Positions 1 through 7,996 are shown, counted from the stretch's first letter. The stretch is DNA of 7,996 nucleotides from a virus (IMGVR_UViG_2609459791_000005:1-7996), one strand, 5' to 3'. Notes: a model not told the origin generated them from the sequence alone. Made by a program: numbers and translations.

Positions 1-222
1 ATGCAATCCATTAACTTCCGTACCGCGCGTGGCAACCTTTCTGAAGTGCTCAACAATGTTGAAGCCGGGGAAGAGGTTGAAATCACCCGCAGAGGCCGTG
101 AGCCAGCAGTAATTGTCAGCAAGGCTACTTTCGAAGCCTACAAAAAAGCGGCGCTGGATGCTGAATTTGCATCCCTGTTTGACACCCTGGACTCCACCAA
201 CAAGGAACTGGTTAACCGATAA
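1..222 (+). CDS. phd: Phd antitoxin (type II toxin-antitoxin, Phd/YefM family), P1 prevents-host-death protein
   Basis: 73-aa [76 protein letters not shown] matches my recollection of P1 Phd in sequence and length. Its stop overlaps the next ATG (TAATG at 220-224). The window begins at its start codon, so its promoter is not visible. Confidence 0.9.
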
Positions 223-602
223 TGAGGCATATATCACCGGAAGAACTTATTGCGCTTCATGATGCGAATATAAACCGCTACGGCGGCCTGCCGGGCATGT
301 CAGATCCGGGTAGGGCAGAGGCCATTATCGGGAGAGTTCAGGCCAGAGTTGCCTACGAAGAGATCACCGACCTTTTCGAAGTCTCCGCCACCTACCTGGT
401 GGCTACGGCGAGAGGGCATATATTCAATGATGCCAATAAGCGTACCGCGCTAAACAGTGCGCTGTTATTTCTACGCCGTAACGGGGTGCAGGTATTTGAT
501 TCACCTGAACTGGCAGACCTTACTGTAGGCGCTGCGACTGGCGAGATATCTGTATCTTCTGTCGCCGACACGTTACGTAGATTGTATGGTTCTGCGGAGT
601 AG
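222..602 (+). CDS. doc: Doc toxin (Fic-fold kinase, death on curing)
   Basis: 126-aa ORF directly coupled to phd. It contains the Fic-type motif HIFNDANKR (about 417-443). Sequence and length match recalled P1 Doc. Confidence 0.9.
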
Positions 603-606
603 ATTA

Positions 607-786
607 ATGGCACGCAAATACAACAAATTGTCCCGTGAAGCGTTAAAGATGCTTCTTGATGGCGTGAGTCGCCGCGAGGTAAAGCAATACCTGGTTGGTA
701 AGCAAATTGGAGCCAGGACTGCTATTGCTGTGTTATGCCGTCAGGAAATGGTTGTGCTTAAACAGAGAATGCCGGGCAGCAGATAA
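607..786 (+). CDS. small hypothetical protein with helix-turn-helix-like segment; possibly the first P1 post-doc gene by synteny
   Basis: ATG at 607 lies 7 nt after a GGAG (596-599) and just past the doc stop. The ORF track gives an in-frame upstream ATG at 586 that would overlap doc. The segment SREALKMLLDGVSRREVKQYL looks like an HTH. No family recognised from memory. Confidence 0.4.
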   Translation: MARKYNKLSREALKMLLDGVSRREVKQYLVGKQIGARTAIAVLCRQEMVVLKQRMPGSR

Positions 787-813
787 AGCCCAATCAGTGA
801 TGAAAGGTGTGAT

Positions 814-1857
814 GTGAAAGCCGTAATTACTCCCTTTGTACAAAAAGAGCTTGGCGTCGCCACATTCAAAGTGGATCAGGAAGTCAGAAAGCTGGTGGAG
901 GCTGGCCGTAAATTTATTATGGAGCCGGTGCCGCGTGAGTTAATCGAGCACATGGACGACGGCCTCGTTGTTTCCGAGCAAACTATGGCAACAAATGAGG
1001 CGTTGCAGCCGTTTTTTAACAGCGATGAACTGTTTCGCCGTATTGGTGGAATTGACGCGCTGGTGGCGTGGTTGCGCAGGAAAGAGGGGCAATGCCAGGC
1101 CGCAGATCGTAGCTGCTGTGACAACCATATTGTCCACGCAGAACGAGACAATAGCGCGGTGTTGTTGTGCTGGCATCACGATAACCATTACCGGATGCGT
1201 GGTTTTAATGAGCTGAAAGAAACGCTGCATAATAATCGCGTTAACTGGATACTGGATGTCGCCCGTCAGGAAATGGGGCTTTCAGATGGCCATGATTTAA
1301 GTATTCAGGAACTGTGCTGGTGGGCTTTCATGCGCAACATGATGCACCTGATGCCGGAAGAAGTTTGCCGTATATCAATAAATAAGATGAAAGCCGCAAC
1401 GCAGGATAGCGGACCTCTGAAAGAGGCGGATATTCGCCCGTATGACGATCGCGCTACAGCATATGTTCAGATGATGGAAGAACGCGCCGCGCCGATGCGT
1501 GCAAAAGTATGCCCTGTGGATGTTGACTCCGACCCTGGCATGGCGCATTTCAAAATACCAAAACTGCAATCGCTAAAATTACCTGAGTACATGGACTTTG
1601 TTGCTTCCCGTCCATGCTGTGGGTGTGGAGCGGCGGGAGCTGGCGCTCACATTACGCCTTATATCGTTCGTCATAGTCGATTATGCGCGCATGACATTTA
1701 CGCAATTCCTCTGTGCCAGTCATGCCAGCGTGATATTGAGCGTGACCGCGATAATTGGGAGAAGACGCACGGTAGGCTGGCGATGCATCAACGATTGTTC
1801 TTTGATTACGCGCTTGGAGTCGGCGCTATCACAAGTCACTCGTCGAGCGTTAGATAA
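814..1857 (+). CDS. Cys/His-rich protein with two HNH-like / DUF968-like zinc-motif units; possibly P1 PdcB by synteny
   Basis: 347-aa ORF with GTG start at 814 preceded by AAAGGTG. Motif units are [25 protein letters not shown] and [38 protein letters not shown]. Three Chi octamers lie inside the gene. The name is from recalled P1 gene order, not a search. Confidence 0.6.
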
Positions 1858-1858
1858 A

Positions 1859-1875
1859 ATTGCTCTAATGTATTG
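1859..1875 (+). promoter_or_regulatory. C1 repressor operator-like site upstream of lpa
   Basis: ATTGCTCTAATGTATTG matches 14 of 17 positions of the P1 C1 operator consensus ATTGCTCTAATAAATTT as I recall it. It overlaps the -35 of the candidate promoter below. Confidence 0.55.
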
Positions 1876-1903
1876 CTATTTCTTTAATCGAGGGTGTTAT
1901 ATT
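1873..1903 (+). promoter_or_regulatory. candidate sigma70 promoter for lpa (-35 TTGCTA, extended -10 TGtTATATT)
   Basis: -35-like TTGCTA at 1873-1878 and TG at 1895-1896 followed by TATATT at 1898-1903. The spacer is long (about 19 nt), so the exact elements are uncertain. Confidence 0.35.
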
Positions 1904-1945
1904 CCACGTTGATTAGTTGACATGGGCTAATCAGTAGGTGACAGG

Positions 1946-2398
1946 ATGTTACTTAACTGGCAGGGACGCCACTTCATGGAAATAAATCACTCACGAATAA
2001 CATCGTACGAGATTGCGGATTACATGATCCGCACTAAATCTCTTCTATCAGCGAAAGAACTCGCAGCAATTCTTGAAAAGGAATACCCGCATCTGGATGT
2101 CGATAAGCGCGATGTTTATCTGCGCTTAAAGGCTATCGCTGTGTCTAAGTATTCGTCTGTTTTGATTGATGACAGTACACGCCCACGTAGATTTCAGATC
2201 CACTCTCTGAATCCTGAATTCTTTCGCCGTAGCCGCGCTCCGCGCCGGTTTGATGAAAAACTCCAGAACGAACTCTATATGACGCAGGACGAAAAGGAAC
2301 GCCGGGAGCACCAGCCTTGGGTAATGGCGCGTCAACTTTTCAATAAGGTGGCCCGTCAGCACCGTCATTACGGTAATGCCACATCCGCACGTATCTGA
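1946..2398 (+). CDS. lpa: late promoter activator Lpa (P1 gene 10) candidate
   Basis: 150-aa ORF immediately upstream of pacA, preceded by AGGTG (1936-1940) 5 nt before the ATG and by a C1 operator-like site. Assignment is by position and known P1 gene order (gene 10 next to the pac operon); the protein sequence itself is not recalled. Confidence 0.6.
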   Translation: MLLNWQGRHFMEINHSRITSYEIADYMIRTKSLLSAKELAAILEKEYPHLDVDKRDVYLRLKAIAVSKYSSVLIDDSTRPRRFQIHSLNPEFFRRSRAPRRFDEKLQNELYMTQDEKERREHQPWVMARQLFNKVARQHRHYGNATSARI

Positions 2399-2408
2399 TT
2401 GATTGCTT

Positions 2409-2428
2409 GCCCGTTCCGGGCCTTTTGA
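2409..2428 (+). terminator. weak candidate intrinsic terminator after lpa
   Basis: GCCCG-TTC-CGGGC hairpin (2409-2421) followed by CTTTT. The stem is short, hence low confidence. Confidence 0.25.
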
Positions 2429-2458
2429 CATGTGACTTTCGTTACCCTCGCGTCAAAA
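2423..2458 (+). promoter_or_regulatory. candidate late-promoter / regulatory element upstream of pacA
   Basis: Near-palindromic TTGACATGTGAC (2425-2436) plus a flanking inverted repeat TTTTGAC(2423-2429)...GTCAAAA(2452-2458), about 50 bp upstream of the pacA start. The pac operon is known to be Lpa-dependent, but I cannot recall the late-promoter consensus with confidence. Confidence 0.25.
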
Positions 2459-2483
2459 AGAGTTTTTACGAAAGGAAGCATAA

Positions 2484-3677
2484 GTGACCTGGGACGATCA
2501 CAAGAAGAATTTTGCTCGCCTGGCGCGAGATGGTGGTTACACCATCGCACAGTATGCCGCCGAGTTTAATCTTAACCCTAATACTGCACGTCGTTATCTC
2601 CGTGCCTTCAAAGAAGACACCAGGACAGCGGACAGCCGCAAGCCAAATAAGCCAGTCAGGAAGCCACTAAAAAGCATGATCATTGATCACTCTAATGATC
2701 AACATGCAGGTGATCACATTGCGGCTGAAATAGCGGAAAAACAAAGGGTTAATGCCGTTGTCAGTGCCGCAGTCGAGAATGCGAAGCGCCAAAATAAGCG
2801 CATAAATGATCGTTCTGATGATCATGACGTGATCACCCGCGCCCACCGGACCTTACGTGATCGCCTGGAACGCGACACCCTGGATGATGATGGTGAACGC
2901 TTTGAATTCGAAGCTGGCGATTACCTGATAGATAACGTTGAAGCGCGGAAGGCCGCGCGCGCTATGTTGCGTCGGTCCGGGGCCGATGTTCTGGAAACCA
3001 CTCTTCTTGAAAAGTCTCTTTCTCATCTCCTTATGCTGGAGAACGCCAGGGATACGTGTATTCGCCTGGTGCAGGAAATGCGCGATCAGCAAAAAGACGA
3101 TGATGAAGGTACTCCGCCTGAATACCGTATCGCGAGCATGCTAAACAGCTGTTCCGCGCAGATAAGCAGCCTGATCAACACCATTTACAGCATCCGGAAT
3201 AACTATCGAAAAGAAAGCCTGGAGGCGGAAAAGCACGCTTTGTCTATGGGGCAAGCTGGCATTGTTAAGCTGGCATACGAACGAAAGCGTGAAAATAACT
3301 GGTCAGTGCTGGAAGCAGCTGAATTCATCGAGGCGCATGGCGGGAAAGTGCCGCCCCTGATGCTGGAGCAAATCAAAGCCGATCTGCGTGCTCTTAAGAC
3401 CAATACCGATGATGAGGAAAGGCAAACAGCCGTTGGTGGCCCTTCTCTTGAAGATCTGGACAAAGTTGCGCGAGAACGGGCCGCCAACCGCCGCGCCGAT
3501 GCCGCATTGTGGATTGAGCAGCGTAGGGAAGAAATCGCCGATATCGTTGATACAGGCGGTTATGGAGATGTTGATACTGAAGGTGTATCAAACGACCCAT
3601 GGCTGGAACAAGACCTGGACGAAGACGAGGAGGAAGACGAAGAAGTTACCCGCAAGCTATACGGGGATGATGATTAA
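2484..3677 (+). CDS. pacA: terminase small subunit / pac-recognition protein PacA
   Basis: 397-aa ORF with GTG start 5 nt after AAAGGAAG. N-terminus [42 protein letters not shown] is HTH-like, and the C-terminal tail is acidic ([13 protein letters not shown]). The pac hexamer clusters lie inside the gene. Length matches recalled P1 PacA. Confidence 0.9.
2677..2835 (+). other. P1-type pac packaging site: four TGATCA hexamers, spacer, then three TGATC(A/G) hexamers, each carrying a Dam GATC
   Basis: TGATCA at 2677-2682, 2684-2689, 2696-2701 and 2711-2716. TGATCG at 2807-2812, TGATCA at 2819-2824 and 2830-2835. This matches the published P1 pac architecture of 4+3 hexanucleotide elements flanking the cleavage region. 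Confidence 0.85.
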
Positions 3678-4531
3678 TGGCCAGAAGTTGCGTAACGGAT
3701 CCACGTTGGCGCGAGCTGGTGGCGCTATATCGTTATGACTGGATTGCGGCCGCTGATGTTTTGTTCGGCAAAACACCTACCTGGCAGCAGGATCTGATTA
3801 TTGAGTCTGTGCAGGAACAGGGTAGCAAGACATCTGTTTCGTCTGGTCACGGTACCGGGAAATCAGACATGACTTCTATCATGATCATGTTGTTCATAAT
3901 CATGTATCCCGGTGCCCGAGCCATTATCGTTGCGAACAAAATTCAGCAGGTAATGACCGGTATATTCAAGTACATCAAGATAAACTGGGCTACTGCCACC
4001 AGCCGTTTCCCATGGCTTGCTGATTATTTTGTTCTGACAGAAACCGCTTTCTATGAGGTTACTGGTAAAGGTGTATGGACTGTAGTACCGAAGGGCTTTC
4101 GTCTGGGAAGTGAAGAAGCTCTCGCCGGTGAACACGCAGATCATCTTCTGTATATTATCGATGAAGCCTCCGGTGTCAGTGATAGAGCTTTCGGTATCAT
4201 CACCGGTGCTCTTACCGGACAGGATAACCGCATCTTATTACTGTCACAGCCTACACGCCCAAGCCAACGTCTAAGGAGGCTGCCAATATGGCTACTATCC
4301 CTACCCCAACTCATCCTGAATTTATCTGCCGCTTTTACTCCTGCCAAAAACGTCACTATCACTTCGTTATTGCACCAACAGAAGATGAGGCCCGCTCTCA
4401 GCTTCCTGACGCCCCATGTATTTTCTCTGCCCGTTTTTCCACTGATTCACGCAATTCTCTCAGTTACTGGTGCCTCCCTGTTAACGCTTCTGCTCAGGAG
4501 GGACTATGAGAACGTCATTAGTCACCCGTGA
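3677..4531 (+). CDS. pacB: terminase large subunit PacB, N-terminal ATPase portion only (truncated; 3' tail of the ORF is not protein-like)
   Basis: Start overlaps the pacA stop (TAATG at 3675-3679). Walker A GHGTGKS at about 3845-3865 and Walker [10 protein letters not shown] at about 4145-4171. Terminase-like sequence runs to QPTRPS (about 4264); the frame then reads a Leu/Ser/Pro-rich string to the stop at 4531. Confidence 0.6.
4288..4509 (+). CDS. icd: Icd-like small protein (host cell-division inhibitor family of immI-type antirepressor operons)
   Basis: 73-aa ORF preceded by TAAGGAGG (4270-4277). Its stop overlaps the next ATG as ATGA (4506-4509). The segment [28 protein letters not shown] resembles Icd-like proteins; length matches recalled P1 Icd (73 aa). 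Confidence 0.5.
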
Positions 4532-5624
4532 AGAGATGATCGAGGCAATTGAACAGCACATTGCCTGTATCAGTACCAGGGATATACCAGGCGTTATTGC
4601 CAACTACTTCATGATCACCAAACAACTTTACCGGAGAAAGGACAAGAACTCGGTTCACCGTATCCTGTTGTCTGATATCCGCGAATACCTGCTCGAACAG
4701 GGTCATCTGAATTACGCAACCGTCGCAGCCGAAGCACGCAAGGAGGCACACAGAATGAAAGCAACTAACGTTAAATCAGAAAAAATTCATGCACCTTCAG
4801 TTCAGGAATCGGAGCTGGTGGTTGTTCAGAATCAGTCTGATGAAATTCCCGTTCTGGAATGGCAGGGAGCGCGTGTAGTGACAACCGAGACTCTTGCTAG
4901 AGGGTATGGGACAGAAACAATCCGTATTCGCCAAAATCATCATGAGAACAAAGTACGCTTTGTTGAAGGGAAGCACTTTTTCAAAGTTGAAGGAGAATCA
5001 TTGCGCGAGTTGAAGCACAGAGTAGCTTTAAACTACTCTGTAAAAATTGCTCGCAATGTTCGCTCACTCACCCTCTGGACAGAACGCGGCGCAGCCCGCC
5101 ACGCTAAAATGCTCGAAACCGATCAGGCATGGGCATTCTTTGAAAAACTGGAAGACAGCTACTTCCGACAAAAAGAACAGCAACCGGTCGCAATCCCCCA
5201 GACGATTCCAGAAGCTCTGCGCCTGGCTGCCGAGTTAGCTGAACAAAAGCAACTTCTGGAACAGAAAGCCCACCAGCTAAATCAGCAGCTGGTGGCCGCC
5301 GCTTCTAAAGTCGATTTTGCCGACCGGGTATCAGTAGCTAAAGGGATCCTGATTGGGAATTTTGCAAAGGTCGTTGGACTTAAACAAAATGCGCTGTTTG
5401 CCTGGTTACGGGAGAACGGCATTCTGATAGCGTCCGGAGGCCGTAAAAATGTACCGTTCCAGCAGTACATCAACGCGGGGTATTTCACGGTGAAAGAAGT
5501 GGTGCTGGATGATGAAGATGGCTACCAGATACGGTTGACGCCTCAATTAACGGGTAAAGGCCAGCAGTGGTTGACGCGTAAACTGCTCGATGCTGGTTTG
5601 TTAAAACCGGTGGCGGCTGAATAA
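4506..5624 (+). CDS. ant: phage antirepressor Ant (ORF6N-like domain plus KilAC-like C-terminal domain); nested in-frame second start at 4755 (Ant2-like)
   Basis: 372-aa ORF with AGGAGG at 4495-4500. ORF6N-like stretch [47 protein letters not shown] and KilAC-like stretch [58 protein letters not shown]. An internal in-frame ATG at 4755 follows AGGAGG at 4741-4746. Confidence 0.7.
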
Positions 5625-5631
5625 TGGAAGA

Positions 5632-5661
5632 ATGCCCGGTTGATGCCGGGCATAATTTATT
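5632..5661. terminator. bidirectional intrinsic terminator between convergent ant and c1
   Basis: Perfect 8-bp stem ATGCCCGG / CCGGGCAT (5632-5639 and 5646-5653) with 6-nt loop, T-rich on both flanks. It sits 8 nt after the ant stop and directly after the c1 stop. Confidence 0.6.
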
Positions 5662-6508
5662 GCGCGCTTTCGGGGTTGTCGTTTACTGGCTGCCCCTTCT
5701 TGGTTTTACGGCTGCGCGTAACTGATGCGGCTGACTTAACCTTTTTCTCTTCGCGAGTGATGGCAATTTGTTTTTTTACATTTTCAATATCTGCCAGGCG
5801 ATATATTTTTGCTTGCGGCCAGCGGCCGCAGATGATCGGTTCTATGGAGTCATAAAGGCTAAATTTTGCTTTTTCGAATTCACCGTTGATGATAATTCCA
5901 TCACGGAGAGTTTCATCGCAGATAAACACGCCACACAGTGGCACATGGTAACTAACTGATTTACCATCATTGTAGTTAGGGCTACTGGAAATGTAGTGGA
6001 CGCGCAGCATTGTTTCGCTAAAGCCGTGTACGCGCATACGGAATTTTTCATCCTCCGGGTACTGCTTCATTAGCTCTTTTGTTGCTTCCAGGTTCTCTAT
6101 GTATTTCGCACTGTGCTCATTGATCCCCGCGCTTTTTTGGATGCGAATGTCCTTATCAATCAGATGAATAATGCGGCCAGCGGTCATGTTGACGCTGTTC
6201 ACAGCTTCTGTCTGATAAGTTGTAACCTTACGCACACCGCGAAGGATGTTAGGCACTGGATATAAAATAGTCTTTGGGATATTGAGGTCTGGGTACTGTT
6301 CCAGTTCCCGCGCCATTAAAGTCCATTTATCAATTTCAGCCTGAATGCTGTCAGTTTCTTTGAACGGTAGAACGACAACCGGGCGTACAGGACGACCGTC
6401 GCTGGCTGTATCAACGTGTTGGGCGCGTGCAACAGCTTTTTTTAGAAAGAGATCCCTGAAGCTGACGAACTCCTGGTACAGTTGTTCGCCGTAGACATAA
6501 TTTATCAT
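5657..6508 (-). CDS. c1: C1 master repressor of lysogeny (immC)
   Basis: 283-aa ORF MINYVYGEQLYQEFVSFRDLFLKK... matches recalled P1 C1 in sequence and length. Strong SD GGAGGAGG precedes the ATG on the minus strand. Confidence 0.9.
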   Translation of the reverse strand: MINYVYGEQLYQEFVSFRDLFLKKAVARAQHVDTASDGRPVRPVVVLPFKETDSIQAEIDKWTLMARELEQYPDLNIPKTILYPVPNILRGVRKVTTYQTEAVNSVNMTAGRIIHLIDKDIRIQKSAGINEHSAKYIENLEATKELMKQYPEDEKFRMRVHGFSETMLRVHYISSSPNYNDGKSVSYHVPLCGVFICDETLRDGIIINGEFEKAKFSLYDSIEPIICGRWPQAKIYRLADIENVKKQIAITREEKKVKSAASVTRSRKTKKGQPVNDNPESAQ

Positions 6509-6828: not shown

Positions 6829-6947
6829 AATTATGCCTCACTGTATTGACAACACAGAGCCTGAAGCTCTGACCTACTGTTTCACCCATGATCCATGCTG
6901 GGGTAATCTAACAACGTTGCGCTGTGTGTAAGATGAGCAATGCATAG

Positions 6948-7996
<1,049 letters not shown>

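Follow-up and report, generated by a model that had tools for sequence, protein, structure and literature searches.

An orphan P1-type pac site in a probable young, IS5-bounded remnant of a P1-like phage-plasmid

The stretch of E. coli DNA analysed here, of 7,996 nucleotides and called the window below, carries a canonical pac site of the P1 family inside an undamaged pacA, immediately upstream of a truncated pacB. Very probably the block is a young, IS5-bounded remnant whose pac site would be inert in cis and a competent substrate in trans. As to its source, the comparisons below point most likely to an RCS47-like phage-plasmid, of which a young remnant is now carried in a mosaic plasmid. An earlier note on this DNA had spoken of a "recently disabled or helper-dependent element"; it is better described as a young remnant of P1, bounded by IS elements, whose pac site is orphaned.

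By its sequence the window is P1-family (Punavirus) DNA, with the gene order phd, doc, pdcA, pdcB, lpa, pacA, pacB', an icd-like gene, ant, c1, coi and IS5, in which every gene save pacB is full length. On the plus strand, lpa (1946–2398) codes for a late promoter activator of 150 aa, complete and recognised as PF25716 (BPP1_LPA), and the Lpa-dependent late promoter LPpac is placed at 2430–2448 (plus strand) by homology to the P1 annotation; over the 151-bp LPpac region, the window, P1 and RCS47 share 100% identity. Then comes pacA (2484–3677, plus strand), which codes for the pac-recognition subunit of the pacase; this protein matches phrog_1711, "terminase", in PHROG with an E value of 2e-203 and has a weak N-terminal HTH. 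The c1 repressor gene (5657–6508, minus strand; 283 aa) specifies a protein 99% identical to P1 C1.

The pac site within pacA

A P1-type pac site is textbook biology, already known, and adds nothing new; it is said to go back to the work of Sternberg and Coulby in 1987–1990 and of Skorupski et al. in 1992 and 1994. In the window, a hexamer search finds TGATC(A/G) on the plus strand at 2677, 2684, 2696 and 2711, then at 2807, 2819 and 2830, that is four hexamers, a gap of 90 bp (2717–2806) and three hexamers, all within pacA. The earlier note had proposed just such a 4+3 array of seven hexamers, with a spacer of about 90 bp, and its positions are confirmed, in an alignment with P1 that needs no gap. 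Seven hexamers in 159 bp is far beyond chance: the window was simulated 5000 times with a first-order Markov model, and four was the most that any 159-bp stretch contained. Over the whole window and both strands, TGATCR occurs 26 times, against 11.1 +/- 4.1 in shuffles.

The first cluster, HEX4 (2677–2716, plus strand), is made of four TGATCA separated by spacings of 7, 12 and 15, and is in register with the corresponding cluster of P1, RCS47 and phage 673R5. The second, HEX3 (2807–2835, plus strand), has TGATCG at 2807 and TGATCA at 2819 and 2830, with spacings of 12 and 11. Counted from the first to the last hexamer, and by alignment to the annotated P1 pac, the minimal P1-type site extends over 2677–2835 (159 bp, plus strand) and covers pacA codons 65–118. 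The earlier note had suggested aligning the region to P1 pac, and the outcome speaks for it: against the P1 record NC_005856, where pac is annotated at 90.7–90.9 kb, window positions 2640–2880 are identical at 239 of 241 bases, without gap and with all the hexamers falling into register. The two substitutions are silent in PacA, whose residues 61–120 are those of P1.

Between the two clusters, the P1 annotation mapped via the alignment places an IHF binding site at 2739–2751 (plus strand), which reads AAACAAAGGGTTA in the window and AAACAAAGAGTTA in P1. By this homology 12 of the 13 bases are those of P1; the sole change falls on an N of the WATCAANNNNTTR consensus, and phage 673R5 has the same base as the window at this position. 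The staggered cleavage positions, 2759/2760, 2761/2762, 2765/2766 and 2767/2768 (2759–2768), are also placed by homology to the P1 annotation, and the cleavage zone aligns with that of P1 with no differences. The region has these sequence features of a P1-type pac: 4+3 hexamers within about 160 bp in the 5' part of pacA and, by homology, an IHF site and a cleavage zone between the clusters.

The published P1 site is likewise described as 161 bp inside pacA, composed of HEX4, an IHF site, the cleavage site and HEX3 (PMC10028697). According to the same paper, the GATC cores of pac are Dam targets and Dam methylation gates cleavage, which agrees with the Dam-gated P1 layout proposed in the earlier note; cleavage requires PacA, PacB, IHF and HU, and P1 genome packaging drops about 9-fold when the hexamers are mutated synonymously (PMC10028697). 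All seven GATC cores are present in the pac of the window. Five of them consist of a GAT (Asp) codon and the next C, so that the pac sequence at the same time encodes a repeated Asp-His/Gln/Arg motif of PacA. An eighth TGATCG (2858–2863, plus strand) stands outside the minimal pac, 23 bp past its last hexamer; although it lies beyond the published minimal site, it is present in P1 and in all alignable relatives save one (L018).

The conservation of this architecture was examined in 62 IMG/VR loci encoding PacA relatives, of which 59 have an alignable pac region. The complete 4+3 set is found in register in 53 of these 59. Hexamer 4 is absent from the IMG/VR loci L018, L048, L051 and L054, and also from plasmid pF1273-3 (L004, outside the 62), and hexamer 5 is absent from L052; pacA and pacB are both intact in L004, L018, L048, L051 and L052 (L054 being left out of this count). 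A pac with 3+3 or 4+2 hexamers is thus apparently tolerated in nature. In L057, whose PacA has 70% identity, hexamer 1 is absent and the left cluster has spacings of 12 and 15, the right cluster spacings of 12 and 11, and the clusters are 96 bp apart, as in the window. This locus (3701–3890) also displays an extra hexamer in the middle of the spacer, at 3775.

Truncation of pacB and loss of the C4 RNA

The earlier note had also opposed an intact PacA to a truncated cutting subunit, and both halves of this statement hold. PacA has its full 397 aa, 96% identical to P1 PacA without gaps. By contrast pacB' (3677–4264, plus strand) keeps codons 1–196 of the gene for the large terminase subunit, their product 82% identical to P1 PacB 1–196 and including the Walker A (GHGTGKS) and Walker B (LLYIIDEA) motifs; the ORF then runs on out of frame for 88 codons (4265–4531, plus strand), across the icd-like gene and with no PacB homology. 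Of the two full-length subunits of a pacase, PacA (397 aa) and PacB (494 aa, ATPase and nuclease), the window encodes only the first. In P1, pacB is essential for plaque formation, with an EOP below 1.2e-7 (PMC10695390).

The closest intact relative of the window is pF1273-3; identity between the two is 99.5% before the break at 4264 and 98.9% after it. Relative to this plasmid, 1211 bp (L004 2166–3376) are missing at the junction 4264/4265, which shows 1 bp of microhomology and no IS scar. The deletion takes pacB codons 197–494, i.e. the last 60% of the gene, together with an isrK-like sRNA and the C4 antisense RNA gene. We considered an IS-mediated deletion of pacB and rejected it, the junction having neither IS sequence nor target duplication and an overlap of 1 bp only. 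Judging from the junction, the loss of pacB is an illegitimate deletion of 1211 bp.

Intact PacB matches phrog_2 (TerL) over residues 33–474 (E 3e-40), and the match of the stub spans the N-terminal part of this profile only. Searches of PDB sequences gave, with PacB as single query or with a profile of 3 sequences, four matches at E ~1; all four are sub-threshold, come from Sf6 gp2 and one other large terminase, correspond to nuclease domains of terminases and align at PacB 298–310 and 411–468, within the deleted part. They are consistent with a nuclease domain in that part, and are no proof of it. A Pfam search of PacB gave no significant matches; its sub-threshold hints, AAA in the stub and RNaseH-like at residues 279–351, were not counted as evidence.

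Among the 59 complete IMG/VR relatives, 56 have a full-length PacB (494 aa in 55 of them, 495 aa in L057), and the others show either different lesions (L005 and L021) or a 504-aa variant (L061). L005 and L021 resemble the window in having an intact pacA, with pacB disrupted differently (ORFs of 89 aa and 144 aa respectively). Besides, pacB falls into two allele classes across L005–L066, with ~99% and ~80.6% nucleotide identity to pF1273-3, beside a pac region conserved at 93% or above, which suggests that a recombination boundary lies close to where pacA meets pacB.

Is the deletion real? The junction was found in none of 5426 complete E. coli genomes and none of 72,556 PLSDB plasmids, nor in IMG/VR, the GTDB representatives or the JGI metagenomes. 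From these empty searches we had thought of a private, singleton mutation, an idea that was dropped when an exact-protein look-up in NCBI, ENA and Logan retrieved the exact 284-aa fusion ORF from 16 draft contigs of several samples. The same empty searches could also be taken to mean that the truncation is an artefact of sequencing or assembly and that the true pacB is intact. We regard this as practically negligible: the identical junction ORF was assembled on 16 contigs in independent projects and by different assemblers (SPAdes-style NODE, MEGAHIT k141, Logan, NCBI WGS) and comes from two isolates, and repeat collapse is not expected at a junction with only 1 bp of microhomology. The fusion ORF was deposited from E. 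coli 2-474-04_S1_C2 and E. coli 2-156-04_S1_C3. The whole window recurs at 100% identity in contig JNRK01000040.1 of the former isolate (GCA_000704645.1; L068); in the other copies 0–2 nt are changed over ~8 kb. A fusion ORF found on 16 contigs with so few differences shows that the deletion is genuine, common to these copies and of very recent date. In NCBI this ORF (3677–4531) bears the name "putative cell division repressor domain protein" (KDV91267.1, KDY99630.1), apparently a misannotation that probably arose because the ORF overlaps the icd-like gene out of frame.

The deletion also changed the setting of the antirepressor module. The icd-like gene (4288–4509, plus strand; 73 aa), whose Shine-Dalgarno sequence starts 11 nt past the junction, precedes ant (4506–5624, plus strand), which codes for an intact antirepressor of 372 aa with domain matches to ORF6N and KilAC. 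In the intact relative pF1273-3 (L004 3157–3346), an isrK-like sRNA (60.8 bits) and a C4 antisense RNA (75.9 bits) are found upstream of icd-like/ant; neither of the two scores in the window. In the immI region of P1, the C4 RNA blocks the translation of icd-ant. Owing to the deletion endpoint, icd-ant is deprived of a C4 RNA in cis and of its own upstream region, and now stands right behind pacA-pacB'. With C4 stripped and icd-ant behind the late pac operon, it is conceivable that the antirepressor would fire only with the Lpa of a helper. The antirepressor ORF, intact in the window (4506–5624), is annotated as frameshifted in pF1273-3 (L004 3619–4736).

IS5 boundaries and the fate of the pac site

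The source assemblies were drafted from short reads and break off at IS copies. In longer contigs the P1 block, from phd to coi, is bracketed by IS5 on both sides. The right-hand copy (window 6945–7996, plus strand) bounds the segment and is a simple insertion in imcA, its left junction being that of phage RCS47; in L067, where it occupies 8812–10010, a 4-bp duplication (ATAG) flanks it, and next come lox-cra-cre-c8 and a Tn3-family transposase. The left-hand copy lies just left of window position 1 (L068 5066–6263; L067 568–1768), 61 bp upstream of phd in L068 and ~100 bp upstream of it in L067, where homology to P1 itself starts at 76 bp. No target duplication accompanies this left copy in either contig. 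Beyond it, where P1 would have humD and the genes upstream, L068 has ttrBCA-metQ and L067 has IncF-plasmid sequence. L068 misses 41 bp next to the left IS5 as compared with L067, and in L068 the IS5 end reaches the -35 hexamer of Pphd. Between them, the left and right IS5 show ~92–94% identity; since, in addition, the left one has no target duplication, the block more likely moved by IS5-mediated recombination or rearrangement than by transposition of a composite transposon as a unit.

Both flanks of L067 are 99.6–99.9% identical to pRHB31-C14_2 (CP057263.1; L073–L075), an IncFIA/FIB plasmid which carries RepE, SopAB and metabolic cargo. Its P1 DNA amounts to ~10 kb, in three pieces: phd-coi (6.5 kb), lox-cra-cre-c8-ref' (2.4 kb) and lxc-ulx-darB' (0.9 kb). 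When P1 kb 1–48 and 87.5–94.8 were compared with this plasmid, nothing was found in it from P1 17–47 kb, where the genes for portal, lysis, dar, tail fibre, baseplate, tape measure and tube lie. More generally, small P1 remnants (phd-doc to coi, cre-lox-c8, lxc-ulx-darB') occur in F-type and mosaic E. coli plasmids (CP057263.1; NZ_CP061751.1, L072), where IS elements surround them and metabolic cargo, for instance ttr and dms clusters, accompanies them.

One might nevertheless see in the window a part of a whole P1-like prophage-plasmid, functional but for one recent deletion in pacB; its P1 backbone would then continue on the far side of the IS5 copies, with ttr as cargo. Such a prophage would be in keeping with the 99% identity to intact relatives around the break, with the full length of the other window genes, with an LPpac identical to that of P1 and with the near clonality of the copies; and the right-hand IS5 junction, being common to the functional phage RCS47, does not by itself indicate a remnant. 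The surroundings in the draft contigs, on the other hand, point away from it: the homology to P1 ends 61–76 bp upstream of phd, at an IS5 without target duplication; humD and the P1 genes upstream of it are swapped for ttrBCA-metQ (L068) or IncF DNA (L067); and on the right side of L067, cra-cre-c8 gives way to a Tn3-family element, as in pRHB31-C14_2, which has no virion genes of the P1 region compared. We therefore hold a whole prophage to be unlikely. Given the IS5 bounds, the non-phage flanks and an IncF plasmid without the P1 17–47 kb genes, it is probable that the remnant was orphaned already and that the loss in pacB is one of its lesions. Of the "recently disabled" element of the earlier note, what stands is the youth (99.5% and 98.9% identity to the intact relative), as opposed to an old decayed prophage; what does not is the whole element with pacB as its key defect, the segment being IS5-bounded and flanked by non-phage DNA.

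What can a pac site do in such a remnant? In intact P1, PacA together with host IHF and HU assembles on both hexamer clusters, and the Dam-methylated GATC cores license the complex; PacB then cuts the ~10-bp zone between the clusters, and headful packaging begins at that end. In the remnant, the site, pacA, lpa and LPpac are intact, and the PacB encoded in cis is devoid of residues 197–494, nuclease domain included, so that the element should not cleave its own pac. The intactness of the site may simply reflect its recent origin and its embedding in an undamaged ORF, and need not imply a current function. If, by contrast, a P1-type phage providing PacA and PacB were co-resident or infecting, pac would be expected to be cut and headful packaging of the carrier replicon to start there. 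Such an encounter is not far-fetched, the P1-family region from the 3' end of pacA to c1 being matched in 838 of 5426 complete E. coli genomes. Phagemids and chromosomal DNA need no more than a pac in cis to be packaged by P1 (PMC10028697), and ectopic chromosomal pac sites boost P1 packaging, as far as the work of Huang and Masters (2014) is cited in that paper. To judge from its similarity to P1 C1 (99%), the resident C1 would however tend to block a homoimmune helper.

The helper-dependence put forward in the earlier note is accordingly possible in mechanistic terms, because pac acts in cis with a pacase supplied in trans; no sign of a selected property accompanies it. A selected hitchhiker would be a remnant in which pac, pacA, lpa and LPpac were kept for high-frequency packaging and transduction of the carrier plasmid by a helper. 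The pac-pacA-lpa block is indeed intact and also retained in non-phage IncF plasmids, the allele is present in several samples, P1-like elements are common potential helpers, and pac in cis is sufficient for packaging by P1 (PMC10028697). However, the youth of the copies (0–2 differences per 8 kb) fully explains the intactness; the window and the flanks seen hold no integrase, excision or capsid-remodelling gene, and the satellite-type features amount to the packaging signal and PacA; phd-doc, c1 and cre-lox, valuable for plasmid maintenance or immunity, could be why the block was retained, pac travelling along as a passenger; and the resident C1 would repress a homoimmune helper. Selection for packaging thus appears very improbable to us.

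It is likewise a long shot that the IS5-bounded remnant is more than debris in some other or wider sense, as a packaging substrate, as a decoy through the PacB stub, or through a helper-gated icd-ant. Were it so, pac, PacA, Lpa and LPpac would turn the carrier plasmid into a high-frequency substrate of P1-like phage-plasmids, which are found in ~15% of complete E. coli genomes, or else pac, PacA and an ATPase-only PacB stub would form a decoy poisoning the terminase of an incoming P1. A young remnant with an orphan pac remains our preferred reading.

Relation to P1, RCS47 and plasmid-borne P1 DNA

Some practical consequences follow from an orphan pac in plasmid DNA. An intact pac-pacA-c1-phd-doc block is no indicator of a P1-like phage, which matters for annotation and for surveys of mobile elements; the same block of ~7–10 kb circulates in ordinary F-type and in mosaic plasmids. 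A P1-type phage present in the same cell should begin headful packaging at the orphan pac, and this could raise the transduction of the adjoining DNA.

Compared with P1 itself, which is ~95% identical to the window overall, the pac of the window has the same place in pacA, the same 4+3 hexamers, the same position of the IHF site and the same sequence in the cleavage zone. The differences are the two synonymous substitutions, one at the N of the IHF spacer and the other between hexamers 5 and 6, and a PacB that is predicted to be non-functional in the window.

The closest phage record is RCS47 (FO818745 / NC_042128), which carries blaSHV-2 and is 98.6–99.1% identical to the window, with 99.1% over window 1–4264. 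RCS47 shares with the window the icd-ant insertion between pacB and c1 and the same IS5 junction in imcA. Unlike the window, it has a full pacB of 1485 bp and the isrK-like/C4 region, and its ant region is 94–96% identical; upstream of phd, RCS47 has humD where the source contigs have IS5.

Among plasmids, pRHB31-C14_2 has the same kind of block as the window, phd-doc-pdcAB-lpa-pacA-pac...c1-coi followed by IS5 and cra-cre-c8, in a non-phage plasmid; it differs by an intact pacB of the P1 allele type, by having no icd-ant and by a dms cluster between two IS5 copies. P1 derivatives without lytic functions, such as pJIE250-3, are documented as plasmids (PMC6906374). Like pJIE250-3, the window probably represents P1-derived plasmid DNA unable to make phage, as a segment which is much smaller and bounded by IS elements.
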